Positions 3,236 through 35,367 of a stretch of 64,000 bases of DNA are shown piece after piece. How positions within the stretch are numbered: the first letter of the stretch is position 1; every line of letters starts with the position of its first letter. The position numbers and the translations under genes are program-made. This DNA comes from an uncultured Gammaproteobacteria bacterium (GTDB taxonomy: Bacteria; Patescibacteriota; Microgenomatia; UBA8517): contig OZ246419.1 in NCBI GenBank assembly GCA_965231135.1, positions 577,488 through 641,487 of the forward strand. Reading direction: 5' to 3'. Below the pieces are notes generated by a model, which saw nothing but the letters and a program-made list of their open reading frames with translations, had not been told where the DNA came from and ran no database searches.

Positions 3236-3640
3236 ATGGAAAGTTTTAATAAATACAAACCAGAAGATAATACTATAAATAAATGCGAGAACTGCCATGC
3301 TTGTTGCAAGAACATGATTATGAAGATAGAAAGTTTACAGAGAAGAAAAGCCTATCCAAATGCAATAAGATCTTCTTTTTACGGCACTCAATATTTATCC
3401 GAAAGTTGCGATGAAGGTGTTTATTATATCGAAACAAATGAATCCAGTCATACAGGTTTTGATACATTTGATGAAATTGTAATTAATGGAGACTGTCCAA
3501 ACTTGAAAGATAACGGCTGGTGTGGAATTTATAAAAGAAGACCTGATGCATGCACTTTGTTTAAAAAAGATTCTAAAGCATGCGTAGATAAAAAGTTAGA
3601 AGAATTTATACCAGATGAAACATTAAAGATTGTGAGGTGA
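3236..3640 (+). CDS. YkgJ-family putative Zn/Fe-chelating CxxCxxCC-domain protein
   Basis: The N-terminal motif is 'CENCHACC'. Confidence 0.45.
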   Translation: MESFNKYKPEDNTINKCENCHACCKNMIMKIESLQRRKAYPNAIRSSFYGTQYLSESCDEGVYYIETNESSHTGFDTFDEIVINGDCPNLKDNGWCGIYKRRPDACTLFKKDSKACVDKKLEEFIPDETLKIVR

Positions 3641-3644
3641 TAAT

Positions 3645-3836
3645 ATGACAGAAAGAGAAATAAGAACAAAAGGTTTTAATTGCGATAAGATAATGGAAGA
3701 GGTATTTGGACCAGATAAAGGTTGTGAGCCATATAGTGAAAATGTACAAAACCCAGTTGCAACAGTACAAGTACAATATCCAAGACCATTAATGCCAACA
3801 GCAAAAGGTTTGGGAGAAATGGTTAATGGAGAATAA
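3645..3836 (+). CDS. hypothetical small protein
   Basis: The 63-aa ORF follows the previous gene closely. Confidence 0.2.
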   Translation: MTEREIRTKGFNCDKIMEEVFGPDKGCEPYSENVQNPVATVQVQYPRPLMPTAKGLGEMVNGE

Positions 3837-3876
3837 GTAGATATGGATAGGTGGGTGATATATAATACACCTATCC

Positions 3877-3950
3877 GGGCGGTTAGCTCAGTTGGCTAGA
3901 GCGCTTTCTTGACGTGAAAGAGGTCGGGGGTTCGAGCCCCTCATCGCCCA
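3877..3950 (+). tRNA. tRNA-Val (anticodon GAC)
   Basis: The sequence folds as a cloverleaf: acceptor GGGCGGT/ATCGCCC, D-stem GCTC/GAGC, anticodon stem CTTTC/GAAAG with loop TTGACGT, T-arm GGGGG-TTCGAGC-CCCTC, and discriminator A. No CCA is encoded. Confidence 0.85.
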
Positions 3951-3951
3951 C
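3902..3951 (+). repeat. attL: 50-bp direct repeat (3' part of tRNA-Val), identical to 11087..11136
   Basis: An exact 50/50 match, 'cgctttcttgacgtgaaagaggtcgggggttcgagcccctcatcgcccac', appears at both sites. Confidence 0.85.
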
Positions 3952-3975
3952 TTGTATTTATGAAAAGTCGTTGCT

Positions 3976-5052
3976 GTGACAACGGCAGTCCGCTACAGAC
4001 GGCATAACGCTCAGGTGGTAACTCTCGGGAAGTTAGAAGCAATCCCTTGGGTTGCTATGGCTAACTTACAAGGTAAACATTTAGAAATCATATTAACTAA
4101 GTATCTTCAATGGTGCAAAATTGAACGTGGTCTTGCAAAGCAAACAGTTGCTGGGAAAAAACAGACTCTTGGCCATTTTTTGAAATATCTTGACGGCGAA
4201 AAATTGACGTTGAAGACTTCCAAAGATTATATGTATCATTTAAGTTCCGATTTGGGTTGGTCGGCAAATGGAATCAGAAGTGACTTTAATTCAAAAGTTA
4301 AACCATTTATTCATTGGCTTTTTGAAACAAAATATATAAAGATTGATTGGTCCAAAAAGATTAAGGTTCCCAAAGCACAACCAAAACAATATCCAGTAGT
4401 AAGTTTCGAAGAGCTAGATAAAACCATCTTCGCTGGAACCTCATTCACAGAAAAGGACTGTAAGCTTGCTAAAGAACGAAGGCTGGAAAACAGGGAAGCC
4501 TTACTCTTCGAAGCCAGAACAGGTTTAAGAATCGGGGCAATTATTGGACTCAAGAAAGAAGATGTCAATCTCAACTCTATCCCAGCAACTTTTAATGTTT
4601 ACAGTAAAGGTAAATTTCATACTGGCATAGTTCCTCCCGACTTAATTGAAATGATGAAAAGAAGATGTGTTGGCCCTGGAAAAGTTTTCAATGTTTATGG
4701 CGGCAGTCTTAATCACTATATAAGAAGAGGTTGCGAGAAGTTGGGAATATCAAATGATTTCCATTTCCATACCATGCGGCACAGTTTTGCCACAAGTTTA
4801 TTAAATAACGGGACAGATATTAGTATGGTAAGCAAAATCCTGGGTCATAGCAGTATTGGCATCACCGCAGACATTTATAGCCATTATTCCGTGCAAGACA
4901 AAGCCAGGGTTATTAATTCAATTCCTACAGTAAGAAAGTCTCTATCCACAGAGGAAAGGGCAAAAATAGTTATAGAAAAACTACAAAAAGACTTTGGTAT
5001 TATCAAATACACAAGAAAAGGTGAAAAACTAACAATTAATATCAAAATATAA
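3976..5052 (+). CDS. int: tyrosine recombinase / phage-type integrase
   Basis: The C-terminal catalytic signature is 'HTMRHSFATSLL...ILGHSSIGITADIYSHY'. The track begins at a GTG at 3976. An ATG at about 4054 is an alternative start. Confidence 0.85.
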   Translation: MTTAVRYRRHNAQVVTLGKLEAIPWVAMANLQGKHLEIILTKYLQWCKIERGLAKQTVAGKKQTLGHFLKYLDGEKLTLKTSKDYMYHLSSDLGWSANGIRSDFNSKVKPFIHWLFETKYIKIDWSKKIKVPKAQPKQYPVVSFEELDKTIFAGTSFTEKDCKLAKERRLENREALLFEARTGLRIGAIIGLKKEDVNLNSIPATFNVYSKGKFHTGIVPPDLIEMMKRRCVGPGKVFNVYGGSLNHYIRRGCEKLGISNDFHFHTMRHSFATSLLNNGTDISMVSKILGHSSIGITADIYSHYSVQDKARVINSIPTVRKSLSTEERAKIVIEKLQKDFGIIKYTRKGEKLTINIKI

Positions 5053-6798
5053 TTAGGAATAGTATTTTTGTAAGTCTCTCATCGGATCGTTATCTAAATC
5101 TGGGCCGACAGGTAACTTCTTCTTCCTAAGCAATTTAAGGGCATGTTTTAGATATTTCTTCTCAACAATTAATTCATGATTGGTTTTAGAAATTGCAAAA
5201 AAATCATGACTATCTAATGTCACTTCCTTTCTAGCTAGTTTTAAAAAAAGTTCAATTCTCGGAACAATAACTATTCTTTCCATAAACACCTTATCAGATT
5301 TATATGCATTTTCTAACCAATCTAATAAGTGTTGATGCACTGGCAATGCAGCAGCACCTGGAACAATCATGACGTTCGAAGGAGAAAAAAGTACAGCCTT
5401 ACGATCTTTAGATATACGAAAATGTAACATCTTGAATCTTTTTCCTTTGGAATCGTTTTCAGCGTTAGTCCAAAACTGAAAAATAGTAAGTGCTGGAAGA
5501 GGTTTGCCACTTCCTTTCTCAAAATTTATAACAATGCTATGTATTCCTGTTAAACCGAGAGCTACTTTCTTATCTGCATAATTTTCAAGGTTGATTAAAA
5601 TATAAATCGAATCAACGACTGCCTTTATTCTATCAATCTTATCAATTAAGTAGTCCACTTTATAAATTTTCCCTGAAGATTTTATTTTGATTACTTCCCT
5701 TTTCATGTCAATCAAATAATCATTATGGCCAGAAGTACTATTTCTCAACCCTGCATCATAAGCCATTCTTATTTTTCGCTTAAGAATAAGATCAGGGCAA
5801 TCATCAATTATCTTTTTGATCATTAAACCTTTCTTGTTTCCAATTTTTAAACCATTGTATTTTTTGCCAGCAAAAGGATTTAACATAAAAGATCCACCGT
5901 TACAAATATTTATAATGTTGTAAATTATATTAAGAACCTCGCTAATCTCAAAATAAGCTTGGTAAGCATCTAAGGCTATTTGGTAACTTCTCTTTTCAAC
6001 TTCCTTAACATCATTCATCCTCAACCTTTCCACAGGTACGAAACCACCGGTAATTCGCCTATAAGCCTCCTCTGATCGTAAATTATCTGATTCTTGTATT
6101 TTATTTAGTCCTATTTCTACCGATTCGAATAAAGTAGTGTAAGTTTTATCTTCGAAAAACATTTTGAGTGCTTTCTTGTATTCAGAAGGATTAACTTTCT
6201 CAGCCCGCTCAAATAAATTGTTAAATGCACTTACATAAGGTACTTTATATTTCTTTCTTTTATTTACAGAAGTAGATGAACGATACTCATTAAGAAATAG
6301 CATATATTGCAGTCGCCACAGTCCGTAGTCAAAACTATAAAAACTATCTGTAGGCAATAATCCAGCACCTAACTTATAAGCCTGAGCTGGATTTTCAATT
6401 AACAACTTACTAATCATGTTGGTTCTATTTCTAATTTGAGAATTAATCGAAGATATTGAGTTTACAAAACCTTCTTTATGCCAGCATTCAGCAAGAGGTC
6501 TTTTTAGATGCAAAAGTTTTGATCTCTTCACATACTGTCTAGTTAACATCACAAGCGCACCACACGTACACCTGTGCAGTTGTATACTCGAAGAATCATC
6601 ACTAAGAGCTTTCTCTACGCTCAACCAGAAACTACCAGCATATGGCAAACTCTTATAAACACCTTCCAGATAGCGAATATCCAACTGGTCTAGTTCCCTA
6701 ACTCTAGTTTCCGACTTCATAACATGATTATATTCGTTGTGTAAAGATATTTTAAAAAAGACATCTCTTAGGATGAATAATCCCCTGACTGTTTCCAC
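5053..6798 (-). CDS. large hypothetical protein, island cargo of unknown function
   Basis: The 581-aa ORF has no recognisable motif. The start may be the internal Met at about 6720. Confidence 0.4.
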   Translation of the reverse strand: METVRGLFILRDVFFKISLHNEYNHVMKSETRVRELDQLDIRYLEGVYKSLPYAGSFWLSVEKALSDDSSSIQLHRCTCGALVMLTRQYVKRSKLLHLKRPLAECWHKEGFVNSISSINSQIRNRTNMISKLLIENPAQAYKLGAGLLPTDSFYSFDYGLWRLQYMLFLNEYRSSTSVNKRKKYKVPYVSAFNNLFERAEKVNPSEYKKALKMFFEDKTYTTLFESVEIGLNKIQESDNLRSEEAYRRITGGFVPVERLRMNDVKEVEKRSYQIALDAYQAYFEISEVLNIIYNIINICNGGSFMLNPFAGKKYNGLKIGNKKGLMIKKIIDDCPDLILKRKIRMAYDAGLRNSTSGHNDYLIDMKREVIKIKSSGKIYKVDYLIDKIDRIKAVVDSIYILINLENYADKKVALGLTGIHSIVINFEKGSGKPLPALTIFQFWTNAENDSKGKRFKMLHFRISKDRKAVLFSPSNVMIVPGAAALPVHQHLLDWLENAYKSDKVFMERIVIVPRIELFLKLARKEVTLDSHDFFAISKTNHELIVEKKYLKHALKLLRKKKLPVGPDLDNDPMRDLQKYYS

Positions 6799-6995
6799 AA
6801 ATGAGCACGACCTTCACCTTTTACTCTAGGCATGATGTCACGAAGAGGAGTCTTACGATCTGTCAACTTGACGATCTCAGCTTCCAAGTCTTGACGTGCC
6901 AATAAAGAATTAGGAATAGGACCTGCAAAGCCACCTACGTCCACGTTCTTAGCAAAAAGATTCAATACTGCTTCTGGATCAATTGGATTGTTCAT
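6768..6995 (-). CDS. hypothetical small protein in a locally GC-richer segment
   Basis: The 75-aa ORF is noticeably more GC-rich than its flanks. No motif was recognised. Confidence 0.2.
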   Translation of the reverse strand: MNNPIDPEAVLNLFAKNVDVGGFAGPIPNSLLARQDLEAEIVKLTDRKTPLRDIMPRVKGEGRAHLWKQSGDYSS

Positions 6996-7007
6996 TAAAA
7001 TTGTTGT

Positions 7008-7036
7008 TTGACAAAGCCTGTAGTAAAGAATATATT
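7008..7036 (+). promoter_or_regulatory. sigma70-like promoter for the precursor operon
   Basis: TTGACA (7008-7013), a 17-nt spacer, then TATATT (7031-7036). An SD 'aaggtga' lies 8 nt before the ATG at 7072. Confidence 0.45.
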
Positions 7037-7071
7037 CTTTTTACATATTAATATGAGAGAAGGTGATTTAA

Positions 7072-7269
7072 ATGAGTAGAGAAGAAAGAAATCTAATAGA
7101 TGCATTACCACAACAAAATATTGGCGTTGCCATTAAAGGCCAGGATTGTGAACAAAGCTGTGGAAGTTGTAATAGCTGTGCCTGTGGAGACAATAGCTGT
7201 GGAAGTTGTTCATCGTGTGCTGATTGTGGATGCAATTGTTCAAATAGAGAAGGCAATATAACTAAATAG
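7072..7269 (+). CDS. RiPP precursor peptide (LAP/TOMM type), Cys/Ser/Gly-rich core
   Basis: The 65-aa peptide has a leader 'MSREERNLIDALPQQNIGVAIKGQD' and a core 'CEQSCGSCNSCACGDNSCGSCSSCADCGCNCS...'. It sits immediately upstream of the YcaO and SagB-like genes. Confidence 0.75.
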   Translation: MSREERNLIDALPQQNIGVAIKGQDCEQSCGSCNSCACGDNSCGSCSSCADCGCNCSNREGNITK

Positions 7270-7317
7270 TTATTTTTCAAGCAGTTTGCTATACTTTGGT
7301 GGTTTTTAAGCGTGTAA

Positions 7318-8625
7318 ATGAAAAATAATACCGTCAATACCATCAAAGAAATAGCATCTGCTTTACAGGATATTAAATTAGTTGAATCTTTTCAAAGAAC
7401 TCGTTTGCATTATGACGAGCCTAAGTTTTGGTTTTATTCTACAATCATAAACGATAAATATTTAAAGCACCAAGGGCAGCATTTTAGTTCTAATTCTTCT
7501 GGAGTATCTTTTTTTTCTCAAAATAAAGCCGTACTTAAATCACTATTTGAAGCGTTGGAAAGATATAGCAACTTTGCTTTCTTTAAAAAAGATATAGATT
7601 TCGTTGGAAGATTTGTTGATATCAAAACTAATGCAATTAATCCCGAATCCTTCTCGTATTTTTCGGAAAAACAATTAAATAATCCAGAATATAAAAAATT
7701 TAAAATAAACGATAAATCTAGATTTGATTGGACAAAGGTTAAATTATTAACCGACGGTAAGGAATATCTTGTACCCTGCCAGACAATATATCTTTCCTAC
7801 AAATTAATTAAGGGAGAGCCTACATTTTATCCTTCGATTAGTACAGGCGTAGCTGCTCATTCTGATTTGGACTCTGCAATTTTAGGAGGTATTTATGAGG
7901 TAATAGAGAGAGATTCTTTTATGATTTATTATTTAAATAAATTAAAACCAAAAAAATACAATTTAAAATCTTCTAAGAACAAAAAAATTCGCTCTCTGGC
8001 GGAAATTACCGAAAGATATCATATGGAATTATATTGTCTTGATATAACTACAGATTTAGGAATACCGACTGTGGCTTCCATTTTAATCGATCGATCGGGA
8101 TTAAGTAAGGCAGTTTCTGTAGGGTTAAAATCAAATTTAAATGTTGAAAAAGCTATCATTGGTTCAATTAACGAGGCCTACCATACAAGAAGTTGGATAA
8201 GAGAAGCATATATTCAAAATCCAACAAATATTACAGAAAAAGAGTTGCTTGAAAGTTCTAGTATGAAAAATAGAGGATTGCTTTGGTATAAACCTGAATC
8301 AATTTCTCATATTAACTTTTTAATTAAAGCGTTGAGATCTGAAGTTATTACCTTAAAAAATAATAATTTATCTGTAAAGGAACAAATCAGATATTTAAAT
8401 GACAGTTTAAATAAAGCTGGTTATAAAATTTATTATAAAGATATTACTCCTGAATATTTCAAAAATATCCATTTCAAAGCAGTAAAAGTAATAATACCTG
8501 GCATGCAACCATTATACTTAGAAGAAAAATTCGCACTTCGTGGAGGTAATAGATTGCACGCTGTTCCCGTTAAGTTGGGGTATAAAAATATTAGATTAAA
8601 CACCTACCCACATCCGTTTTTATGA
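7318..8625 (+). CDS. YcaO-domain cyclodehydratase (TOMM D protein)
   Basis: The YcaO ATP-binding motif is 'STGVAAHSDLDSAILGGIYEVIERD'. The C-terminus carries a Pro-rich 'YPHPFL' motif. Confidence 0.85.
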   Translation: MKNNTVNTIKEIASALQDIKLVESFQRTRLHYDEPKFWFYSTIINDKYLKHQGQHFSSNSSGVSFFSQNKAVLKSLFEALERYSNFAFFKKDIDFVGRFVDIKTNAINPESFSYFSEKQLNNPEYKKFKINDKSRFDWTKVKLLTDGKEYLVPCQTIYLSYKLIKGEPTFYPSISTGVAAHSDLDSAILGGIYEVIERDSFMIYYLNKLKPKKYNLKSSKNKKIRSLAEITERYHMELYCLDITTDLGIPTVASILIDRSGLSKAVSVGLKSNLNVEKAIIGSINEAYHTRSWIREAYIQNPTNITEKELLESSSMKNRGLLWYKPESISHINFLIKALRSEVITLKNNNLSVKEQIRYLNDSLNKAGYKIYYKDITPEYFKNIHFKAVKVIIPGMQPLYLEEKFALRGGNRLHAVPVKLGYKNIRLNTYPHPFL

Positions 8626-9392
8626 AAAACGATAAAACAATAAACATACTTAAAAAGCTAGAGCTTTCATCTTCAATAAAATTTAATAATAGTATTAAGA
8701 TAAAGAATTTTAGTAAAACAAAAACTTCATATAGTGCTTGGCCTGAGCAGTGGAAGAAGGTTTATTACAAAGCATATCCTAAATTTCCTCAAGTTTTGTT
8801 ACCTGATCCAGCAAGAGCACGCTGGAGCTTAGATGATGCATTGATTAAACGAAAATCTCAAAGAGAATTTACAAAAAAAGATATAAAAATCCAAGATCTC
8901 TCTACTTTGCTGTATTTTTCAAGCGGTTTAAAAGAACTTTTGTTTAAAGGATCTGGAGAAAGAAGGTTTTATCCTTCTGCAGGAGCTAGGTATCCTTTAG
9001 AAATTTATCCAGTCATTTTTAATGCGGAAAGCATTAAACCTGCAATTTATCATTATCATGTTAAAAGTCATTCTTTAGAAGAAATATATAGCAATAGTTT
9101 TGTAGCGCAAATAATTAAGCAGTTTAATCAACCATGGATACGTAAGTCTTCAATGTTAATTGTTGTTTCAGCTGTTTTTGAAAGGACTGATAACAAATAC
9201 GGAGATAGGGGGCTAAGACATATATTTACCGAATATGGTCATTATGCTCAAAATATTTACCTGATTTCACAAGAGCTAGGCCTTGGTTCATGTTCTATAG
9301 GCGGATTTATTGACGATGGATTGAACAAATTATTGGATTTTGACCCAATAGATGAAAGTGTAATTGGTGTTATTGCAATAGGAACTTTATAG
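8622..9392 (+). CDS. SagB-type dehydrogenase (azoline oxidase, TOMM B protein; nitroreductase fold)
   Basis: Signature motifs 'KRKSQREF', 'PSAGARYPLEIY' and 'YHYHVKSHSL' are present. An ATGA overlap links it to the ycaO gene. Confidence 0.85.
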   Translation: MKNDKTINILKKLELSSSIKFNNSIKIKNFSKTKTSYSAWPEQWKKVYYKAYPKFPQVLLPDPARARWSLDDALIKRKSQREFTKKDIKIQDLSTLLYFSSGLKELLFKGSGERRFYPSAGARYPLEIYPVIFNAESIKPAIYHYHVKSHSLEEIYSNSFVAQIIKQFNQPWIRKSSMLIVVSAVFERTDNKYGDRGLRHIFTEYGHYAQNIYLISQELGLGSCSIGGFIDDGLNKLLDFDPIDESVIGVIAIGTL

Positions 9393-9405
9393 TATAATTC
9401 TTTAG

Positions 9406-10059
9406 ATGTTTTTATTTCTTGTTAGACATGCAGAAGCTGACGGTGTAAAGGATCGTTGGCAAGCTCCAAATTCAAAGTTAAGTAAATTAGGTGAACAACA
9501 GGCAGGAGCTTTGGCTAATCAGCTTAAGTCATTCAAGATAGATCAAATATTCTCTAGTGATTTAGAAAGATCTACTCAAACAGCAGATATTATTTCCAAA
9601 AAAATCGGAGTAGAAACTAGCATCTTAGATTATATTTGTGAAAGACAGCAGTTAGATGAAATGTATGGAGCACAAAGAGAAAGTAATATATCAAAAAAAT
9701 ATATTGAAGAATCTCGCCATAATTTCAATAATCTTGATTGGAAATTTGAAGATAAGGAAGAATCTGTACGTGAGGTTATAAATCGCACTATGGAATTAAC
9801 CTCATTTTTAACGAAAAACTTCCAAGGTAAAAGAGTAGCAATTGTTTCGCATGATTTATTTATTAGATGTTTAATCAGTAGAATTTTGTTAGGTAAGGAT
9901 TATTCTGACACACAAATGGCTAGGAGCATTAACACATTAACCATAGACAATACTGGTTTGTCGTTATTAATCCATAGTAGTCAGTTCCAAATGTGGAAAA
10001 TTAATTACATCAATAATTATTCGCACTTTAAAGACATAAGAATAAATAACCGTCAATAA
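9406..10059 (+). CDS. histidine phosphatase family protein (PGAM-like)
   Basis: The N-terminal catalytic motif is 'LVRHAEA' of the RHG family. It is the last gene of the cluster operon. Confidence 0.65.
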   Translation: MFLFLVRHAEADGVKDRWQAPNSKLSKLGEQQAGALANQLKSFKIDQIFSSDLERSTQTADIISKKIGVETSILDYICERQQLDEMYGAQRESNISKKYIEESRHNFNNLDWKFEDKEESVREVINRTMELTSFLTKNFQGKRVAIVSHDLFIRCLISRILLGKDYSDTQMARSINTLTIDNTGLSLLIHSSQFQMWKINYINNYSHFKDIRINNRQ

Positions 10060-10997
10060 TTTTTCCAAACTTCTTCATTATCAACATATTTTAAAACTTT
10101 GCCGTGTGTCTCCTTTGCTGTTGATAAATAAGGACTACTGTTCCTGTAAAAATAAGTTAAAGCTCTTGAAGATATGAAAAGCAAATAGAAGGCGAGGTTC
10201 GACCTTTCAGATTCAGATAATCTTTCTCCTGAGAGGTACCCGTTTAAGAAAGTTGAAAAGTCATCTTTTGGTCTATCAGTTCGAATCTGGTGAAATAAAT
10301 AGTATCCAATATCATTTAACCATGTTTCCTCTGTCCACTCTCCAAAATCTATTAATACTGGAATATTTTCCTCGGTAACAATAACCTGGCCATCATGTAA
10401 ATCATTGTGGTTAAAAGTTGGCTGTGTTTCGTTGCAAAACTGCTCCATTAAATCTCTAAAGCTTTTAATTAGTGCATAAGATTTACTGTCAATATTAATT
10501 TCTTCAAGACCAACTCGTGACCAATTAAAAATATATTTATCATAGTAAGCAAATGAATTTCTACCTGTTGCTTTCCAACTATCACCAGTAACCTGCGCTG
10601 TATTATGCATTATTCTGATTTGATTGCCTAATTTATCCTTAATCCCTGGATTTGGATTAAAATACAAACTTTTTCCATGAATACGTGTTGATACCAGTGC
10701 TAGATGATCTTGATTGTAATTAACAAGTGCAATAGGTGAAGGTGTTGCAATACCTGTAGAATGTGCCGTATTTAAACCTCTCCACTCATGTTCAGCTTGA
10801 TTCTTACGTGCAGTCTTTTTAATTACAACATCCATACCAGATTGTGTTCTAGCATAGATAATTTCACCGCCAGTAAACGGTATTTTATTTTTTTCAGTAA
10901 TTTCAAGATCAATTGAACTTGCATATTTTTCAAGTGAGCTTTGGACAGTTGCAAAATGTTCTGTAGACATACAAATGATTATATCAATGCATATCAA
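10053..10997 (-). CDS. aminoglycoside phosphotransferase / protein-kinase-like fold phosphotransferase
   Basis: The catalytic loop 'HNDLHDGQVIV' (HxDxxxxN) and a DFG-like 'LIDFGEW' are present. Confidence 0.6.
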   Translation of the reverse strand: MICIDIIICMSTEHFATVQSSLEKYASSIDLEITEKNKIPFTGGEIIYARTQSGMDVVIKKTARKNQAEHEWRGLNTAHSTGIATPSPIALVNYNQDHLALVSTRIHGKSLYFNPNPGIKDKLGNQIRIMHNTAQVTGDSWKATGRNSFAYYDKYIFNWSRVGLEEINIDSKSYALIKSFRDLMEQFCNETQPTFNHNDLHDGQVIVTEENIPVLIDFGEWTEETWLNDIGYYLFHQIRTDRPKDDFSTFLNGYLSGERLSESERSNLAFYLLFISSRALTYFYRNSSPYLSTAKETHGKVLKYVDNEEVWKNY

Positions 10998-11086: not shown

Positions 11087-11136
11087 CGCTTTCTTGACGT
11101 GAAAGAGGTCGGGGGTTCGAGCCCCTCATCGCCCAC
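11087..11136 (+). repeat. attR: 50-bp direct repeat (partial tRNA-Val 3' end)
   Basis: It is identical to 3902..3951. No 5' half of a tRNA is present here. Confidence 0.85.
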
Positions 11137-11149
11137 AAATAGCTTTAAA

Positions 11150-11455
11150 ATGGCAAATAAACTAAAATCTCCTTTTCCGAAATATGTCTACGAAAGGAAC
11201 TCGGAAATTTATAAATTAATGGCGAACCCCAAAAGACTTGAAATTTTAAATATTATAAAAAACACCGAAGCTAGCGTTGATCAGCTTTCTGAAATAATTG
11301 GTATACGAAAAGCAAATACTTCTCAACATCTTTCTATCTTAAGACATTTGAGAATAGTAAACGTCAGGAAGGAAGGAAAAAATTCTTATTACAAGCTAGT
11401 AAACCCAGAACTTATCGCTCCGTGTGCCATATTGATGAAACTCTGGAATAAATAG
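11150..11455 (+). CDS. ArsR/SmtB-family transcriptional regulator
   Basis: The wHTH region is 'LEILNIIKNTEASVDQLSEIIGIRKANTSQHLSILRHLRIV'. The track ORF begins at 11099 inside the att repeat. The ATG at 11150 is the more likely start. Confidence 0.6.
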   Translation: MANKLKSPFPKYVYERNSEIYKLMANPKRLEILNIIKNTEASVDQLSEIIGIRKANTSQHLSILRHLRIVNVRKEGKNSYYKLVNPELIAPCAILMKLWNK

Positions 11456-11516
11456 CCTCTTGATTTTTTTAGAAGGAAATGTTGATAATGAATTATGGTT
11501 TCTTATGTTCGAAACT

Positions 11517-13679
11517 ATGAAATATAAACTGGTAGGGATCTTTATATTAGTATTGTTATTTTTTATTATTGGCGTTAAGAGTAGCTTTGCGGCAACTTAT
11601 TATGTTTCTCCAAGTGGAAACGATTCGTACGGCGGATCCTTGGCAAGTCCGTGGAAAACATTAACCCATGCTGCAAACATTGCAGTTTCTGGAGATATTG
11701 TTTATATAAGGACGGGGACTTATCATGAGGTATTAGCGCCGATAGTAAGCGGAGCCCAATCTTCACCTATTACTTTTAAAGCATATCAAGGTGAGACACC
11801 AATTATTAGCGGTGTAAATTCCGGAGGCAGTCCGCCAAACGTAACCGGGCTTGCAACAGGGATTAATCTTGCAAACAAAAGCTATATTGTTGTTGATGGA
11901 TTAATTGTACGAGATGTTTATGACCATTGGGCAGATTTAACTAATGCAAACAATAATACACTTCAGAACATGACATTTACTTTTTCAACTCAATACGGAA
12001 CGGGGAATTGGCAGGGAATATTAATGGACGGATCAAGCTTTAATAAGATCTTAAATTCAACAATCGAGAAATGGGGCTGTCCACAAGATGTTTATAACTG
12101 CGGAGGTGATGCTATAAATATGAAAGGTGGAGCCTATAATAATTTAATACAGGGAAATACTTTTGGCAGTGCGATGCATGCAGAAGTACAAATTCAATCC
12201 GGGCATGATAATATAATTCGTCAAAATACTTTTACAAACGATATTGAAAAAGATTTGGAGATTACCGATAGAGTACAAAACACAACTTACCATAATTTAA
12301 TAGAATTAAACACTTTTAGACAAGCTGGCTGGAACAACGAAAATCACGGAGGAATGCATATTCAAATGGCGTCTTCGCGAAATATTATACGAAATAACAT
12401 ATTTACAGATTCAAGCGGAGAAGCGATGAATTGTGAAGTTTGGAGCGATTCAGGAGATATTGTTTATGATTGCGCCAACAACCGGGTTTATAACAATACT
12501 ATTGTCCATACAATGATTGATCCGGGAGGGTATCCAAATGGAGCAGGCGGTTCAAACCAAAACTGGATACCTGGGGGGCTCTATATTGATAATTTTGGCT
12601 ATGGTATGTATCCGATTACGGGGAATGTTTTTAAAAATAATATTTTTTATGATAACCAACCTAACACAGGTATTGATCCTGGGGATGATCAAATTTGGAT
12701 CTTGGATTCCAAGATCTCTCTTGATTCTAATCTTTTTCAAGGGAATATATTCTTTCATCAGAATGCATCTGACCATACTATACATGTCCAAGGGGTTATT
12801 AGCGGAACTGCAATAGAAGCAAATAATAATTTGTCCGGTAATTTTTCAGGAAATTTAGCAACAGCTCCGACTTTTATCACTTATGCTCCTGCTACAATTC
12901 CAGAAACTTATGATTTGCATTTGAGATCAGGGAGCGCTGGCATAGATCAAGGAGCCAACTTAACACAGACTACGGCCTCAGGGAACGGAACTGCAATTTC
13001 TGTTGCAGATGCAAGTTATTTTCAAGATGGATATCTGGGTATGATAACAGCAGACAGTATTCGTGTGGGCAACTCTGCTGCTATTATTTCTTCAGTTGAT
13101 TTAGTTAATAATATTATTAACGTTGATAGATCGCTCAGTTGGCAAAGCGGAGATGCTGTTAACTTGTTATATGCAGGAAGTGCTCCTGATATTGGAGTAT
13201 ACGAATATGGGACGATCACTATTTATCCTGCAGATCAACCAAGTGGCAATGATAATCCTACGCAAAATAATAGTTCAACTTCCTCAATTACTAGTAGTGC
13301 TAATAGTAATTATTGCAGCGACACAAAGCCTGCAAAAAAGGTGGATCTTTTTGAAATAGATCGAGCTGGATCAACAGCTATTTTATATTTTACTCCAAGC
13401 GACAAGAACACAAGGCGATATAATGTAATATTTGGTTTTAAGGAAAATGACGAACGATTCGGAGGAATTGGTATTTATTCACAAAATAATAACGAAGGTG
13501 TACAAAATATAAAAATAGACCATTTAGACCGTAATACATCTTATTCGTTTAAAATTATACCAATAAACGGCTGCGCATTTGGGGAATGGTCAAACTGGCT
13601 TACCACAAAAGGTTCTCAAAACAGTTCAGGAATTTTATGGAAAACATATAAATATTTGAGGAAAATTTTGAAAACTTAG
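11517..13679 (+). CDS. secreted right-handed beta-helix (pectate-lyase fold) protein with a C-terminal Fn3-like region
   Basis: A signal peptide 'MKYKLVGIFILVLLFFIIGVKSSFA' is followed by 'TYYVSPSGNDSYGGSLASPWKTL'. Repeated 'N-x-I/F' beta-helix rungs follow. Confidence 0.55.
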   Translation: MKYKLVGIFILVLLFFIIGVKSSFAATYYVSPSGNDSYGGSLASPWKTLTHAANIAVSGDIVYIRTGTYHEVLAPIVSGAQSSPITFKAYQGETPIISGVNSGGSPPNVTGLATGINLANKSYIVVDGLIVRDVYDHWADLTNANNNTLQNMTFTFSTQYGTGNWQGILMDGSSFNKILNSTIEKWGCPQDVYNCGGDAINMKGGAYNNLIQGNTFGSAMHAEVQIQSGHDNIIRQNTFTNDIEKDLEITDRVQNTTYHNLIELNTFRQAGWNNENHGGMHIQMASSRNIIRNNIFTDSSGEAMNCEVWSDSGDIVYDCANNRVYNNTIVHTMIDPGGYPNGAGGSNQNWIPGGLYIDNFGYGMYPITGNVFKNNIFYDNQPNTGIDPGDDQIWILDSKISLDSNLFQGNIFFHQNASDHTIHVQGVISGTAIEANNNLSGNFSGNLATAPTFITYAPATIPETYDLHLRSGSAGIDQGANLTQTTASGNGTAISVADASYFQDGYLGMITADSIRVGNSAAIISSVDLVNNIINVDRSLSWQSGDAVNLLYAGSAPDIGVYEYGTITIYPADQPSGNDNPTQNNSSTSSITSSANSNYCSDTKPAKKVDLFEIDRAGSTAILYFTPSDKNTRRYNVIFGFKENDERFGGIGIYSQNNNEGVQNIKIDHLDRNTSYSFKIIPINGCAFGEWSNWLTTKGSQNSSGILWKTYKYLRKILKT

Positions 13680-13718
13680 ATCTTACTTTTTCTTCTGTTT
13701 TAAGGTAAAATTCATCTC

Positions 13719-14696
13719 ATGGATAGAAAGTCCCTTATTATTGGTGTAATTATTGTTATCGCTCTTGCTATTGGTGGAGTTTTTTTAGTGAAATCTAAAA
13801 AGATTAATAACCAAAACGTTTTATCTGCTCAAACTTCTACAACTACCGACCCAAACCAAATGCCAATTCTTGAAATTTTCTCAGGAAATGTTTTCATCAA
13901 ACAAAATGGTGCAAGCGATTTTGTCAGTGCTACAGATCAGGAAAAAGTAAATGTTGGAGATGTTATAAAAACAGATGCAACAGGGAGAGCACAAGTACTT
14001 TATCCAACGCACAGCGTAACTCGTATTGATTTTAATAGTGAAATGACTATTGAAAATTACACTACAACTCCTAGCGTTACAAAAGTAAAGGTTGATCAAG
14101 GAAATATCTGGAGCAGAGTTGCTAAACTTTTTGGAAGTAGTGACTCAAACGATACAGAAAATGATACTTTAGTTGCATCAGTGCGCGGAACTTCTTATGG
14201 ACTTGGAAGCGATACAAACGGAAATACAATTGTTGAAATTATTAAATCTCACGTTTATGTGGAGTGCAATGCTGATGCAAGCAAAAATATTGATCTACAA
14301 ACAAATAATAAATTGATTACAAACTGTCTTAGTAAACTTTCTTCTGTAAAATTGACAAACAGCGATTTAAATAGTGACTGGGTAAAATTTAATGAAGATC
14401 AAGATAAAATTTTGGATCAACGATTTCCAGAAAGTTTTGATGATGAACCAAGCCCAACTCCAACACCTAAGCCAACTTTAAAACCAACAGCTAAGCCTAC
14501 TGCTTCTCCAACTCCTATTACAACACAAGCGCCAACTAGCTCACCAACAAATACTCCGACTCCAACGCCAACACCGACTTACACTCCAAGAAAAACATCT
14601 ACACCGATTCCTACTCCAACACCAACTTACTTTATTGATTACCCAATTTATTATCCTATCTATACTCCCTCGCCAACACCACCGGTGATAAAATAA
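13719..14696 (+). CDS. membrane-anchored FecR-domain protein with a Pro/Thr-rich C-terminal tail
   Basis: An N-terminal TM helix is followed by a FecR-like region and a PTPTPKPT low-complexity C-terminus. Confidence 0.45.
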   Translation: MDRKSLIIGVIIVIALAIGGVFLVKSKKINNQNVLSAQTSTTTDPNQMPILEIFSGNVFIKQNGASDFVSATDQEKVNVGDVIKTDATGRAQVLYPTHSVTRIDFNSEMTIENYTTTPSVTKVKVDQGNIWSRVAKLFGSSDSNDTENDTLVASVRGTSYGLGSDTNGNTIVEIIKSHVYVECNADASKNIDLQTNNKLITNCLSKLSSVKLTNSDLNSDWVKFNEDQDKILDQRFPESFDDEPSPTPTPKPTLKPTAKPTASPTPITTQAPTSSPTNTPTPTPTPTYTPRKTSTPIPTPTPTYFIDYPIYYPIYTPSPTPPVIK

Positions 14697-14699
14697 GTT

Positions 14700-16556
14700 A
14701 TGAAAAATTTTAGAGGATTAATAATTGGTTTAGTTATTTTTATTTTATTATCTTTCCTTTTCGTTTTTGGTTTTTTTGGTACCTGGCAAAATAAATTAAG
14801 CGATACTTTATTTACACAAAAATCTGCACCAAACAATATTGTAATTGTTGCAATTGATGATGCGTCAATTAATCAAATTGGGAGATTTCCATGGGACAGA
14901 AGCGTTTATGCAAATTTACTTAATAAATTAAATAAAGACGCAGTAAAACCTCAAGTAATTGGAATTGACATAACTTTTTCAGAAACTTCAAACCCAAAAT
15001 CTGATGGCGATTTTGCAACTGCTTTGAAAAATTACAGTAATACAAAAATTGTTTTATCAAGCGAAACAAACGGCGTCAATATTTTATCTCCAATCAATGA
15101 ATTAAAAAATGTAAGTGCGACAGGCTATGCAAATACAATTGCTGACTCCGACGGCGTTGTCAGAAAAATTCCAGAAAGCGAAATTGATGGGATAAAAAGT
15201 TTTGCAACAGAAATTTCAGGTAAAAGTGAAAATGGAAATATTAATTTTATAGGAAACAATAATAGTTTCACAACTTATTCTTTTAATGATATTTTGGATG
15301 GAAAAATTAGCGATAAAAACTTAAACAACAAGATAGTTTTGATTGGTTCTACTGCAGTTGATCTTCATGACGACCAAATTGTCCCAACATCTCCAGCTAT
15401 GAACGGGGTCGAAATTCAGGCAAATATTATAAATACAATTCTAACAAATGGCGCTAAGAATAATGAATCAAAATTAATAACTTTATTTACATTACTAATT
15501 ATTTGCCTTGTTGCATCAATTATTTTTATTAATTTATCTCCAGTTGTTGTTTTTATATCAGGAATTTTAATGATAGTAATATATGCAGTTTATGTAATAT
15601 TTTCTTTTGATAACGGGACGATTCGTAATATTGTTTTTCCAATTTTTGCAATAATTATTTCATGTATTGCTGATACGATTTATAAATATTTAACAGAAAG
15701 CCGTCAGCGAAAATTTCTTAAACAAACTTTTGGATTTTATTTATCAAAATCAGTTTTGGAACATCTTATTCAAAATCCACATAAAATAAAACTTGGAGGA
15801 GAAAGCAAGGAACTTACAGTTTTATTTTCTGATATTGCTTCATTTACTAGTATTAGTGAAAAATTAACGCCAACTGATTTGGCAAAATTATTAAATAGCT
15901 ATTTAACCAAAATGACAAATGTGATTTTTGAAAACAGGGGAGTCTTGGATAAATATATCGGGGATGCCATTATGGCGTTTTGGGGAGCTCCAGAAATTGA
16001 GAAAGACCATGCATATTTGGCCTGTGTTACGGCACTTGCAATGCAGGAAGAAATAAAGAAAAATTTTGATTTTAGTGCTCGAGTCGGAATCAATACCGGA
16101 GAAATGGTTGTGGGGAATATGGGAAGCGAGCAAAGATTTGATTATTCGCTTTTGGGAGATAATGTAAATTTAGGAAGTAGACTTGAAGGAATAAATAAAT
16201 ATTATGGAACTAAAATTTGTATTAGTGAGAATACTTACAAAAAAGTTGAGGGAAGAGTAGTAGCAAGAAAACTCGATGATGTTGCAGTAAAAGGAAAGTC
16301 AAAAGGAGTAAGTATTTACGAACTACGGGCACTTGGAGAACCAAAGGAAAAAGAGAAAATATTCTTAGAAGAATTTGAAGAAGCAAGAAAAATTTATGAA
16401 AAAGGTGACTTTAAAAAAGCGTTGACTGCATTTAAGGTTTTGGTTAAAAAATATTCAGAAGACGGGCCAATTTTAATGTATATAGAACGAATTAAAGAAT
16501 TGATTGCAAATCCCCCAAGCGAATGGGATGGAGTATATCATGCAACCGCAAAGTGA
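14700..16556 (+). CDS. CHASE2 sensor domain-containing class III adenylate/guanylate cyclase
   Basis: The extracytoplasmic CHASE2-like N-half is followed by TM helices. The cyclase core contains 'LTVLFSDIASFTS', 'VGINTGEMVVGNMGS' and 'YSLLGDNVNLGSRLE'. Confidence 0.8.
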   Translation: MKNFRGLIIGLVIFILLSFLFVFGFFGTWQNKLSDTLFTQKSAPNNIVIVAIDDASINQIGRFPWDRSVYANLLNKLNKDAVKPQVIGIDITFSETSNPKSDGDFATALKNYSNTKIVLSSETNGVNILSPINELKNVSATGYANTIADSDGVVRKIPESEIDGIKSFATEISGKSENGNINFIGNNNSFTTYSFNDILDGKISDKNLNNKIVLIGSTAVDLHDDQIVPTSPAMNGVEIQANIINTILTNGAKNNESKLITLFTLLIICLVASIIFINLSPVVVFISGILMIVIYAVYVIFSFDNGTIRNIVFPIFAIIISCIADTIYKYLTESRQRKFLKQTFGFYLSKSVLEHLIQNPHKIKLGGESKELTVLFSDIASFTSISEKLTPTDLAKLLNSYLTKMTNVIFENRGVLDKYIGDAIMAFWGAPEIEKDHAYLACVTALAMQEEIKKNFDFSARVGINTGEMVVGNMGSEQRFDYSLLGDNVNLGSRLEGINKYYGTKICISENTYKKVEGRVVARKLDDVAVKGKSKGVSIYELRALGEPKEKEKIFLEEFEEARKIYEKGDFKKALTAFKVLVKKYSEDGPILMYIERIKELIANPPSEWDGVYHATAK

Positions 16557-17785: not shown

Positions 17786-17807
17786 GGGCCTGTCGTTCAA
17801 TGGTAAG
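17786..17807 (+). repeat. 22-nt duplicate of the tRNA-Ala 5' end (partial tRNA remnant)
   Basis: 'gggcctgtcgttcaatggta' is identical to 17838..17859. No T-arm follows. Confidence 0.5.
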
Positions 17808-17837: not shown

Positions 17838-17908
17838 GGGCCTGTCGTTCAATGGTAGGACACCTGGCTGGCAGTCAGGGAACTGGGGTTCGATTCCCCA
17901 TGGGTCCA
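17838..17908 (+). tRNA. tRNA-Ala (anticodon GGC)
   Basis: The 71-nt sequence folds as a cloverleaf: acceptor with a G3:U70 pair, anticodon loop CTGGCAG, T-arm TGGGG-TTCGATT-CCCCA, and discriminator A. Confidence 0.7.
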
Positions 17909-17945
17909 CACTTGTAATATAAAATATTTTTTATATAATTCATTT

Positions 17946-32925: not shown

Positions 32926-33159
32926 ATGATTGATTTACTTAAATTTTTAATCTCAAAAATTACCGGAAGTGAAGATTTTACCGTAACCGAAACTACAGAC
33001 GAAAGGGGAGAAGTTTTTGAAGTAAAAGCAGATCCAGCGATAATTGGACTTATTATTGGTAAAGAGGGAAAGACGATTAAAAATATAAGAAGAATTGCCT
33101 CAATAAAAGGAGTTTTTGATAAGAAAAGCGTCAATATTAAAGTTATTGAAAAGGATTAA
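32926..33159 (+). CDS. KH-domain RNA-binding protein (YlqC/UPF0109-like)
   Basis: The KH motif 'IIGKEGKTIKNIRRI' is present. The gene follows rpsP, as in many bacteria. Confidence 0.7.
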   Translation: MIDLLKFLISKITGSEDFTVTETTDERGEVFEVKADPAIIGLIIGKEGKTIKNIRRIASIKGVFDKKSVNIKVIEKD

Positions 33160-33817
33160 TTTTTCCTGTAGGCGAAGCTGAGGAGCTTGAAGTAATAGGA
33201 CTTACAATATTAGGAGTTATCGCAGCTAAGGTCTTTTGCTCGTCAGATGTGAGCATCTCGATTGGTTTATCAATTTGAGGTAATGTGGCAGGAAGAGGAG
33301 CCCAAAAAGAGAAAACGGTGGCAGTTAAGCTATAAACACTTTGAGAATTATCAATTTTTATCTCTCCAAAATGGATTAGCGGCGTTGAATTTTTAATATT
33401 ATTTATAAATGAAACAATTGAAGAATAATCTCCACTCACCTCAAAATCAATTTGTGATGAATTTACTCCTTGTTTTGCTGAATCAGGAAGATTGGTTGCC
33501 TGGATATTAACAATCAATAAATTGAGATTATTTGCTTGCGATTGAATTAATGAGATAGCTGGAAAAATAGAATTTGAAGAAGGCAGGGCGAGCAAGGCAA
33601 TTTGAGATTCATGGGTAGTAGTTTCATTTACAGAGCTAAGAGAATTGAGTTTTTGTTGCAGGGTTTTAAGTGAGTTATTTTCTGAATTTAAATTATTATT
33701 TAAACGATTCATGTTATCGAAAATGATTTTTCCAGAAATTAAAAATAATACAACTAAAATGATTAAGACAAGGATTGGTCCTGCTAAAAGTTTAAGATCT
33801 TTATCTAGGTTTTTCAT
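33143..33817 (-). CDS. pilO: type IV pilus assembly protein PilO-like
   Basis: An N-terminal TM helix is followed by a coiled coil. The gene lies downstream of pilM and pilN. Confidence 0.55.
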   Translation of the reverse strand: MKNLDKDLKLLAGPILVLIILVVLFLISGKIIFDNMNRLNNNLNSENNSLKTLQQKLNSLSSVNETTTHESQIALLALPSSNSIFPAISLIQSQANNLNLLIVNIQATNLPDSAKQGVNSSQIDFEVSGDYSSIVSFINNIKNSTPLIHFGEIKIDNSQSVYSLTATVFSFWAPLPATLPQIDKPIEMLTSDEQKTLAAITPNIVSPITSSSSASPTGKINPFQ

Positions 33818-33820
33818 GAT

Positions 33821-34345
33821 TTATAAAAAGGTAAATCTAATTGTGTAACCACTTTCCGGAAAAAAATTAAAGTCACTTATTGTTAAGCCCTTTAAAGAAA
33901 TGTTTGTAGAAAGAGAACTTAAAAAAGTTGCCATACCTATAGAGTCTGCACTTATCACGGAAAAGGTGTTTCCGACTGCGCCTGCTGTAATATTTTTAAC
34001 TGAAACGTTTGTCGGCAGACTTGCTAAGACTATGCTTGCTGATGAAAAATTATCGTAAATTTGAGAGTCAGAATTAACTATTTGGATTTTATCTGCACGA
34101 TCTTTCAATACAAAAAGAGTATTTTCTGTGTTTTGTAAAGCTTTTATTTTTTGTGTAACAACAGTTTCCTCGTTTACAGTACTTTGCACTCTAGTTGTAA
34201 AAAAAAGAAGAACTATGGTTCCCAGTAAACTAGCGAAAAGGAAAATACTAAAAAAAATAATGATTATTTTTTTAAGATTCGTTGATGCTTTTGCGCTTCC
34301 ACGGCTTGGCGAAAGGTCAAGTGGCAAGAGATTTATTTCCGACAT
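33821..34345 (-). CDS. pilN: type IV pilus assembly protein PilN-like
   Basis: The N-terminal 'INLLPLD' motif is followed by a TM helix. Confidence 0.6.
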   Translation of the reverse strand: MSEINLLPLDLSPSRGSAKASTNLKKIIIIFFSIFLFASLLGTIVLLFFTTRVQSTVNEETVVTQKIKALQNTENTLFVLKDRADKIQIVNSDSQIYDNFSSASIVLASLPTNVSVKNITAGAVGNTFSVISADSIGMATFLSSLSTNISLKGLTISDFNFFPESGYTIRFTFL

Positions 34346-34346
34346 A

Positions 34347-35363
34347 TCATCCTTCCTTTAAAGCGAGCCCTACAGCTACAGAATAAAGAGGTGCATATGG
34401 ATTTAGACTTTGTTTCGTATTTTCATCGACAACCAGTTTGCTAAACGGATTTGCAATAACAACTTCGCTGCCAATTAATTTTGTGAGAGTTGTATTAATT
34501 TCTGGCAATCCAGCTGTCCCTCCTGAAATTTCTATTAAACTTGGCTGCTCTTCTCCTTCATCTGTTTGGTAAAAATGTACTGCCTTAGAAATGTTTTCAG
34601 TAATGATTCTAAAAACAGGAGAGATAGCGTTTGCAACTTTTCCTTCAAGCTGAGAAGGACTCAGTCCATAAGTTTTTTTATATTCATCAGCCTGTGAGGT
34701 ATTGACCCCAAAATTCTGAGCAACGGCTCTTGTAAAAGCATCTCCTGCTGTAGGAATTGTTCGGGTAAAAACAAGTTTTTCATTTTTAATGATACCAAGG
34801 TTAGTGGATTTTGCACCGAGATCTAGAATAACAATTGTCTGACCAGGAACACTAAGTGCTCTGGTAAGCGCAAGTAATTCTGTTTCTACTCCCACCACAG
34901 TAAGTCCCGCCATTCCTAGAAGTTTGATGTATTTTTCAACTAATGCACGAGGTGCAGCGACTACCAACACGGAAACGAAGGGCGGTTGGGCATTTTCTTT
35001 GCGTTCTAAAACAACATGCTGGAAAATTGCTTCTTTGATCGGTATGGGAATAATCTCTTCTGCTTGCCATTTTACAGCAGAGGCAATTTCTTGATCTGTA
35101 AGAATGGGAAATTTAATGCTTCGAGTAAAAACAAGAGATTCAGGAAGAGAAATATTTACTTGTTTGGATGAAATTTTACTTGCTGCAAATAATCTTTTAA
35201 TTGTATCTGCAACGGTAACATATTCAGAGTTACTCTGAATTCTATCGATGCTTAAATCTTTGACACCAATAATACCAGCAGACTTAAGAACCGGCCTGCC
35301 TCCTTCCGACTTTATTTCAACCGCTTTTATTGTTACTGAACCAATGTCTAATCCTACGCTCAT
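34347..35363 (-). CDS. pilM: type IV pilus assembly ATPase-fold protein PilM
   Basis: The actin-like N-terminus is 'VGLDIGSVTIKAVEI'. Confidence 0.85.
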   Translation of the reverse strand: MSVGLDIGSVTIKAVEIKSEGGRPVLKSAGIIGVKDLSIDRIQSNSEYVTVADTIKRLFAASKISSKQVNISLPESLVFTRSIKFPILTDQEIASAVKWQAEEIIPIPIKEAIFQHVVLERKENAQPPFVSVLVVAAPRALVEKYIKLLGMAGLTVVGVETELLALTRALSVPGQTIVILDLGAKSTNLGIIKNEKLVFTRTIPTAGDAFTRAVAQNFGVNTSQADEYKKTYGLSPSQLEGKVANAISPVFRIITENISKAVHFYQTDEGEEQPSLIEISGGTAGLPEINTTLTKLIGSEVVIANPFSKLVVDENTKQSLNPYAPLYSVAVGLALKEG

Positions 35364-35367
35364 AATT

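Follow-up and report, generated by a model that had tools for sequence, protein, structure and literature searches.

What does a bacterium with a tiny genome make from a 65-codon open reading frame (ORF) packed with cysteine codons? The ORF in question lies at 7072-7269 on the + strand of a 64,000-nt stretch of contig OZ246419.1 (hereafter the window, meaning the whole stretch of DNA that was analysed), which belongs to a bacterium of the Patescibacteria, or candidate phyla radiation (CPR). CPR bacteria, the genomes of which are tiny, show very little secondary metabolism, and any bioactive peptide from these episymbionts is relevant to their competition with other cells or their dealings with hosts. 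An earlier note, made from the letters alone, had proposed that the ORF encodes a precursor for YcaO-dependent heterocyclisation. Judging from the predicted proteins, we read it as the precursor of a linear azol(in)e-containing peptide (LAP), also called a thiazole/oxazole-modified microcin (TOMM), that would be matured by a minimal pathway, and we give this reading a probability of roughly 0.8. The ORF, its start signals and the genes around it are as follows.

7008-7036, + strand: candidate sigma-70-like promoter (TTGACA, 17 nt, TATATT)
7060-7066, + strand: Shine-Dalgarno sequence AAGGTGA, 5 nt ahead of the ATG, read from the sequence
7068-7346, − strand: antisense ORF of 92 aa with a TTG start, not conserved
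7072-7269, + strand: predicted precursor peptide (A gene) of 65 aa, with a leader of about residues 1-24 (motif R-E-R-x-L-x-D-A-L-P-Q-Q-N) and a core of about residues 25-65
7318-8625, + strand: stand-alone YcaO cyclodehydratase of 435 aa (HWA51793.1), with no E1-like domain
8622-9392, + strand: SagB-type flavin mononucleotide (FMN) dehydrogenase (azoline oxidase) of 256 aa (HWA51792.1), the start of which overlaps the YcaO stop by 4 nt
9406-10059, + strand: histidine-phosphatase-superfamily enzyme, the last + strand gene of the operon (Pfam His_Phos_1, E = 2.3e-30)
10053-10997, − strand: kinase of the APH (eukaryotic-like) fold (Pfam APH), encoded convergently to the phosphatase, with a 7-nt overlap at the 3' end of the phosphatase gene

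The cysteine-rich ORF and its conservation

The translation of the ORF is MSREERNLIDALPQQNIGVAIKGQDCEQSCGSCNSCACGDNSCGSCSSCADCGCNCSNREGNITK, identical to the peptide quoted earlier, core string included. It contains 11 Cys (positions 26, 30, 33, 36, 38, 43, 46, 49, 52, 54 and 56, a span of 31 residues) and not the 14 that had been counted, and its core also holds 8 Ser, 5 Gly, 5 Asn and 1 Thr. Gly23-Gln24-Asp25 stands just ahead of the first Cys, as had been described, and 'CGSC' occurs twice and 'SC' six times. Chance falls far short of explaining the Cys density of the ORF. In the window's long ORFs, 0.86% of the residues are Cys; the precursor ORF has the highest number of Cys per 31 residues (11) among the 565 six-frame ORFs of at least 40 aa in the window, and the best ORFs of 20 shuffled windows reached only 5-7. 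The runners-up, both with 9 Cys per 31 aa, are located at 48550-48771 (−) and 58955-59284 (−). They lie antisense inside long + strand genes (47458-49464 and 58742-60448, respectively) and are therefore probably artefacts of the composition of the sense genes.

The two half-cores, SCGSCNSCACGDN and SCGSCSSCADCGCN, are similar, yet Tandem Repeats Finder scored no tandem repeat in the DNA. No Pfam or NCBIfam family matched the 65-aa peptide at E ≤ 0.01, so that none of the curated precursor families of peptides that are made on ribosomes and modified after translation (RiPPs) was matched; we take the NCBIfam set to include the heterocycloanthracin/sonorensin, NHLP and Nif11 types.

Both start signals claimed for the ORF were found, and they fared differently. 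The Shine-Dalgarno sequence is in place. The site at 7008-7036 is also present, matches at 11 of 12 positions and is the best promoter candidate within 6500-10300, but the number of promoter-like sites in this region is no higher than in shuffled sequence and the site is thus weak evidence on its own. An attenuator or terminator between the precursor and YcaO genes was considered and rejected, because the fold of 7240-7330 was no better than those of shuffles (z = −0.99); the sole terminator-like match is located inside the YcaO ORF.

Homologues were sought among 5.8e9 proteins, and profile matches among 1.84e9 cluster representatives; 93 related loci were collected via YcaO, the precursor and the kinase. 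The protein search returned four homologues of the precursor at 58-65% identity. These share with it the leader motif R-x-E-R-x-L-x-D-A-L-P-Q-Q-N, and 10 of the 11 Cys are invariant. The profile matched only 11 cluster representatives, which indicates that the precursor family is small. A Cys-rich small ORF on the same strand lies directly upstream of YcaO in each of the 24 distinct close-clade loci that have enough upstream DNA. When the 29-codon core was compared across 10 loci, 6, 9 and 29 columns were variable at codon positions 1, 2 and 3, respectively, and Ser was kept across switches between the AGY and TCN codon families. The core is under strong purifying selection.

The earlier note had judged the antisense ORF less plausible, and the homologous loci agree: the antisense frame carries 1-3 stops in 16 of 20, whereas the Cys-rich sense ORF is present in all 20. 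Thus, the + strand peptide is the conserved product, and the possibility, raised at the same time, that the conserved ORF is the antisense one did not hold. We find it scarcely credible that the antisense ORF is the real gene and the Cys-rich frame its by-product. The antisense ORF does exist, with its TTG start, and its frame is open in the window and in three further loci (L004, L019 and L022; loci are cited by number). Further, the two frames share wobble positions, so that third-position variation alone cannot tell them apart. However, besides the stops, the retention of Ser through changes of codon family favours the sense frame, which also has the Shine-Dalgarno sequence and the promoter-like site, and the antisense frame would yield a low-complexity sequence, rich in Gln, Leu and Pro, that belongs to no detectable family.

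The two enzymes and the absent partner protein

The YcaO gene starts after a 48-nt gap downstream of the precursor. Its product matched Pfam YcaO (E = 1.5e-59) and scored 259.5 bits with the SagD-type model TIGR03604, above the NCBI curated cut-off of 219.25; with the thioamidation model TIGR03266 it scored 92 bits, below the cut-off of 365. The best relatives in the PDB were the YcaO domains of TruD, MusD and LynD (E = 4e-30 to 3e-27), followed by MJ1094 in fourth place, and the 435 aa align solely to residues ~405-770 of TruD, MusD and LynD. The C-terminal PHPFL is invariant in the family alignment. The dehydrogenase scored 141.7 bits with TIGR03605 (NCBI curated cut-off 78.4). Its PDB relatives are 3eo7, CyaGox (E = 8e-13), McbC (E = 4.2e-9) and BmdC, and its sequence DNKYGDRG holds a Lys-Tyr pair, presumably the catalytic motif of the SagB dehydrogenase family. 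Among the surveyed loci of sufficient length, nearly all have a SagB-type dehydrogenase beside YcaO. With a SagD-type YcaO and a SagB above curated cut-offs, and homologous precursors at the same position in relatives, the central claim of the earlier note, a + strand precursor for YcaO-dependent heterocyclisation, proved right; what that note missed are the absence of an E1-like partner, the kinase/phosphatase pair and the mobile island described below.

The order precursor, YcaO, SagB, phosphatase and kinase (−) is kept in the close loci with enough DNA, down to ~44-49% YcaO identity, and the genes flanking this five-gene module are unrelated between loci. L008 and L027 are exceptions, which keep precursor, YcaO and SagB and are without the kinase/phosphatase pair; in L029, the pair is located upstream of YcaO on the same strand. 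At the place of the pair in L027, the convergent gene after SagB (8109-8792, −) encodes a DUF2268 predicted Zn protease, which may be a leader peptidase. Distant clades (YcaO below ~40% identity) have no pair, and some of them have M16 peptidases or ABC transporters. Seven loci (L004, at 3854-5617, L008, L009, L012, L023, L027 and L083) have a gene, within a few kb upstream of the cluster, for a protein of 540-590 aa with an N-terminal membrane anchor, a Cys/Gly-rich region and no Pfam match; no homologue of it was found next to the cluster in the window.

Neither the window nor the close clade has a recognisable gene for an E1-like partner. E1-like C proteins were found only beside the most distant YcaOs (24-31% identity), at 13 loci, as separate proteins in 11 and fused to YcaO in L081 and L087. 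A hidden Markov model built from these C proteins, with the YcaO halves excluded, matched only these 13 most distant loci; neither the 64-kb window nor the close clade gave a match. The distant loci with C proteins, which fall in L055-L088 (e.g. L088, 3779-4888; L081, 4834-7128), serve as an internal positive control; the fused proteins end in PHPYP. A Pfam survey of the whole window detected no ThiF, TfuA, HopA1, OspF or LanC/cyclase domain, and NCBIfam likewise detected no ThiF/E1 in the five conserved proteins. An E1 or RiPP recognition element (RRE) domain hidden in YcaO, SagB, the phosphatase or the kinase was also rejected, as hhalign against the C-protein profile gave a probability of at most 0.2%. 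Further, YcaO aligns only to the YcaO halves of its relatives and the dehydrogenase is collinear with McbC, so that neither has room for an extra domain. Of the components of a LAP/TOMM cluster, the locus therefore has a SagD/TOMM-type YcaO, a SagB-type dehydrogenase and an adjacent precursor with a leader and a Cys/Ser/Thr-rich core, and it lacks an E1-like (C) or Ocin-ThiF-like (F) partner with an RRE, whether fused or separate.

The D-A motif of the leader persists in loci without the kinase/phosphatase pair, namely L008, L027 and more distant groups with DAKxF-type leaders, and YcaO and SagB are the only proteins common to all loci that have this motif. Since the motif persists without the pair and no partner is encoded, we infer that the leader must be read by YcaO, SagB or a host factor.

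We propose the following pathway. One transcript, probably driven by the site at 7008-7036, would cover the precursor and the genes for YcaO, SagB and the phosphatase, and the conserved leader of the precursor would be recognised by one of the three candidates named above without an RRE. The stand-alone YcaO, with ATP, would then cyclodehydrate the 11 Cys of the core, and possibly some of its 8 Ser and its single Thr, to azolines, which the SagB-type flavoprotein would oxidise with FMN to azoles (−20 Da each), yielding a presumably bioactive product. The unmodified precursor has a calculated monoisotopic mass of 6735.72 Da, and the putative core (D25-K65) a calculated mass of 4074.32 Da; 11 thiazoles would lower the mass by 220.3 Da, and rings at all Ser and Thr as well would bring the loss to as much as 400.5 Da. 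Small integrative elements would carry the five genes between genomes as one self-contained unit.

Could the peptide instead remain unmodified and serve as a metallothionein-like metal binder or as a redox peptide, YcaO and SagB acting elsewhere? Its CxxC-like spacing and acidic residues suit metals, an ArsR/SmtB-type regulator is encoded nearby (11099-11455), and there is no RRE partner that ties the enzymes to the peptide. The regulator gene, however, is located outside the island, beyond its right attachment repeat (attR), and is absent from related loci. The small ORF stays adjacent to YcaO-SagB in all 24 close loci despite their unrelated flanks, and its leader-like N-terminal motif is conserved separately from the core; we regard a metal-binding or redox role as very improbable. 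It is improbable, too, that the YcaO performs another type of amide activation, producing thioamides or amidines or stopping at azolines, with a product that is not a polyazole. Amidine and thiazoline formation in bottromycin (PMC4603692) and thioamidation are known activities of stand-alone YcaOs, and this idea would agree with the fourth-ranked MJ1094 and with the absence of an E1-like partner. Against it, there is no TfuA in the window, and the YcaO exceeds the cut-off of the SagD model while falling far short of that of the thioamidation model, unlike a TfuA-dependent thioamidating YcaO. Further, the dehydrogenase is translationally coupled to YcaO through the 4-nt overlap and is present in nearly all loci that are long enough. 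Nor do we give much credence to the view that the cluster is a decaying, non-functional remnant without partner, protease and exporter. The island indeed has no E1-like partner, peptidase or ABC transporter, and more distant relatives do have M16 peptidases and ABC transporters; yet the five genes are intact and their catalytic residues conserved, the core is under strong purifying selection, and the same five genes recur in over 20 loci, on two kinds of integrative element.

Several points nevertheless weigh against an azole-forming pathway. To our knowledge, all characterised azole-forming YcaOs that work with a SagB-type dehydrogenase have an E1-like or Ocin-ThiF-like partner, and our search for partner genes covered 64 kb of an 810-kb genome. 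The YcaO ends in PHPFL and not in the canonical PxPxP. Pfam and NCBIfam detected no protease, exporter or classical immunity gene on the island, so that maturation and release are unexplained. The kinase and the phosphatase have no obvious signal peptide, and if both acted on the same site in the same compartment, a futile cycle would result. Finally, a literature search returned no published product or experimental paper for any member of the clade. We also found no literature on partner-independent azole-forming YcaOs or on characterised CPR RiPPs.

The cluster type is already known from CPR genome mining, and the present sub-clade is an architectural variant of it. Sharrar et al. (2020, mBio, PMC7298704) describe 110 YcaO LAP clusters in 93 CPR genomes, 89 with a nitroreductase. 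Our locus has the make-up of the CPR-type LAP clusters given there: a CPR genome, YcaO next to a nitroreductase-family dehydrogenase, and a small Ser/Cys-rich precursor beside YcaO. In contrast to our cluster, the example shown in that paper has a peptidase, and a search of its passages found no mention of a kinase/phosphatase pair, a missing E1-like partner or a mobile island.

The more specific kinship to microcin B17 or plantazolicin that had been suggested did not hold: no precursor model matched, McbD was not among the PDB matches of the YcaO at E ≤ 0.001, and McbB, McbE, McbF and McbG have no equivalent. Like the microcin B17 system (McbABCDEFG), the locus combines a YcaO and an McbC-homologous FMN dehydrogenase with a ribosomal precursor that has G-S-C sites. 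Unlike that system, it has no McbB-type E1-like/RRE subunit, no McbEF pump and no McbG pentapeptide immunity protein, and its core is rich in Cys, Ser, Asp and Asn, not in Gly, with nothing that points to gyrase as a target. By sequence, then, it is not a member of the microcin B17 family, and only the dehydrogenase is a distant McbC homologue. The idea of a gyrase poison is unsupported, the evidence speaking neither for nor against it.

The cyanobactin enzymes TruD, LynD and MusD are the closest solved relatives of the YcaO, and ThcOx (CyaGox) ranks second, behind 3eo7, among the distinct PDB matches of the dehydrogenase. These enzyme types produce azolines first and azoles second, as we propose here. 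However, the cyanobactin heterocyclases are ~780 aa long and have an N-terminal E1-like domain and an RRE, compared with 435 aa in the present YcaO; ThcOx has extra N-terminal domains, and our locus has no macrocyclase or protease genes. Bottromycin biosynthesis involves a follower peptide and two YcaOs, which form one thiazoline and one macroamidine, and no SagB-type dehydrogenase. There, the substrate of the YcaO is a ribosomal peptide, and no C protein is recognisable (PMC4603692).

The clade is a natural test of whether YcaO and SagB can form azoles without an E1-like/RRE partner. If they can, a 65-aa substrate and two enzymes totalling 691 aa would be about the smallest known azole-installing toolkit, useful for peptide engineering. 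The sub-clade is worth an experimental test.

The kinase/phosphatase pair

The phosphatase is syntenic in all close loci with enough DNA except L008 and L027. Its catalytic residues R7, H8, R55, E79 and H149 are invariant in 14 orthologues; its best PDB match is the metal-independent phosphoserine phosphatase 4ij5, and it is also near CobC. Conserved residues of the kinase are the beta3 Lys (K60), the alphaC Glu (E71), the catalytic Asp (D199, in HNDLHDGQ) and the DFG-like Asp (D217), and the kinase family comprises 38 of the 5.8e9 proteins, all at E ≤ 4e-61. Three distant members of this family were looked up. Two are located in a full cluster and the third in L091, where an orphan convergent kinase/histidine-phosphatase pair of the same family (93-1663) adjoins NUDIX and Ldh_2 genes; on this 5.2-kb contig, no YcaO, SagB or Cys-rich ORF or precursor was found. 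The AlphaFold2 model of the kinase, a confident one (mean predicted local distance difference test score, 93.7), has as fold neighbours YtaA, the spectinomycin kinase APH(9), AmiN (third-ranked), macrolide kinases (Mph) and the corramycin phosphotransferase. All of these are at 12-18% identity, and the kinase is thus a generic APH fold. AmiN is also its best PDB sequence match (E = 0.0015, identity ~15%), which other APH-fold kinases equal.

In the amicoumacin pathway, phosphorylation by AmiN inactivates the product and AmiO reactivates it, and stand-alone homologues of the kinase are found in non-producers (Terekhov et al., 2018, PMC6156654). By analogy, the pair may act as a self-protection or pro-drug switch that places a reversible phosphate on a Ser/Thr hydroxyl of the peptide, a role that we put forward only tentatively. 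As with AmiN/AmiO, the biosynthetic cluster has genes for an APH-family kinase and a phosphatase, and an orphan pair exists here too (L091). However, AmiO is an alkaline phosphatase and not a histidine phosphatase, and amicoumacin is a product of a nonribosomal peptide synthetase-polyketide synthase (NRPS-PKS) system and not a RiPP. Should the peptide be the substrate of the pair, we know of no earlier description of phospho-switch self-protection for a LAP, and this one would be the first; no description of a YcaO together with an APH kinase and a histidine phosphatase was found in the literature.

The pair could alternatively be part of the tailoring of the peptide and not of self-protection, either by phosphorylating Ser/Thr on the way to dehydroalanine or by supplying a transient protecting group that steers cyclisation. 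APH-family kinases begin the dehydration of Ser/Thr in thioamitide pathways, which also contain a YcaO, and class V lanthipeptide clusters resemble ours in having such a kinase in a RiPP cluster. The 8 Ser of the core, the co-transcription of the phosphatase with the biosynthetic genes, and L029, where the pair lies upstream of YcaO on the same strand, agree with tailoring. In contrast to the lanthipeptide and thioamitide modules, however, the proteins of the window include the kinase and no HopA1-like phospho-lyase, OspF-type lyase, LanC-like cyclase or TfuA, and a phosphatase stands where the lyase would be expected. A histidine phosphatase regenerates Ser and does not eliminate the phosphate. 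Further, the pair in L091 has no YcaO, SagB or precursor beside it, and L008 and L027 have these three genes and no pair. Tailoring is, in our judgement, unlikely, and the rest of the probability goes to roles that are neither switch nor tailoring.

The mobile island and its surroundings

The peptide cluster is the cargo of a tRNA-Val-integrated island of 7,185 bp, which has the following features besides the cluster genes.

3877-3951, + strand: tRNA-Val(GAC), detected by ARAGORN; its last 50 nt (3902-3951) are the left attachment repeat
3976-5052, + strand: tyrosine integrase (Pfam Phage_integrase; NCBIfam XerA/XerD-like; PHROG 1 integrase, E = 3.9e-36)
5053-6798, − strand: ORFan of 581 aa (annotated as 555 aa), with no Pfam, NCBIfam or PHROG match; part of the island backbone and not of the peptide pathway
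6768-6995, − strand: hypothetical ORF of 75 aa that overlaps the 5' end of the ORFan by 31 nt; weak PHROG match (E = 3.7e-4), not conserved with the cluster
11087-11136, + strand: right attachment repeat (attR), a 100% copy of the 3' 50 nt of tRNA-Val; end of the island

The tRNA gene, the adjoining integrase and the perfect 50-nt repeat at the far boundary are those of a tRNA-integrated island, and the only genes on the island are those for the integrase, the 581-aa ORFan and the 75-aa ORF, together with the five of the cluster. The ORFan has a single homologue among the 5.8e9 proteins (L094), adjoining a resolvase, and is absent from all related peptide loci. Together with the 75-aa ORF, it may represent one frameshifted mobile-element gene. 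These two divergent genes were also considered as the missing C protein and rejected, because they belong to no family and are absent from related loci, and the lone homologue stands beside a resolvase. A second 581-aa ORF in the window (61642-63387) is unrelated to the ORFan.

In L016, L001, L015 and L090, the same five genes are located beside tRNA-Trp and a gene for a large serine recombinase (~580 aa). The L016 element (3749-9938) has 28-nt repeats of 89% identity at 3817-3844 and 9911-9938, and the arrangement resembles an integrative element of another, unrelated kind that holds the same cargo. The presence of the same five genes on two unrelated recombinase elements argues that they are one functional unit. 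The island context shows how such clusters can move between CPR genomes, and it delimits exactly the genes to clone.

Taken at its widest, our proposal would make the five genes a new subtype, in which YcaO or YcaO-SagB reads the leader (L-x-D-A-x-P) without an E1-like protein or RRE, the product is a dense polythiazole, the pair reversibly phosphorylates Ser as an immunity or pro-drug switch in place of the pumps or target-mimic immunity known from other LAPs, and the unit has spread among CPR bacteria on elements of 6-7 kb. That all of this is correct together seems doubtful to us.

Further possible traces of integration were seen at tRNA genes. In the window, the 20 nt at 17786-17805 repeat exactly the 5' end of the tRNA-Ala(GGC) that follows at 17838-17909, and L016 has three 54-nt tandem copies of a 5' fragment of tRNA-Trp at 3585-3771. 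In both cases, integration or excision may have left a scar.

Near-identical CPR-type clusters were found in L005, L006, L008 and L010, metagenome-assembled genomes labelled 'Clostridia bacterium' or 'uncultured Gammaproteobacteria'. Their G+C content is 33-39% in L005, L006 and L010 and 49% in L008, and the labels may result from mis-binning or automatic naming.

The ArsR/SmtB-type gene at 11099-11455 was rejected as a regulator of the cluster, being located beyond attR and not syntenic elsewhere. Just outside the island, 11460-16556 (+) encodes a 739-aa beta-helix protein, a FecR-domain protein and a CHASE2-adenylate/guanylate cyclase, which are not syntenic with the cluster in other loci and may form a sensory module. 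Type IV pilus clusters are typical of CPR episymbionts, and the window holds one at 33143-44570 (−), with PilM, PilO, several pseudopilins with N_methyl motifs, a prepilin peptidase, T2SSF and two T2SSE ATPases.

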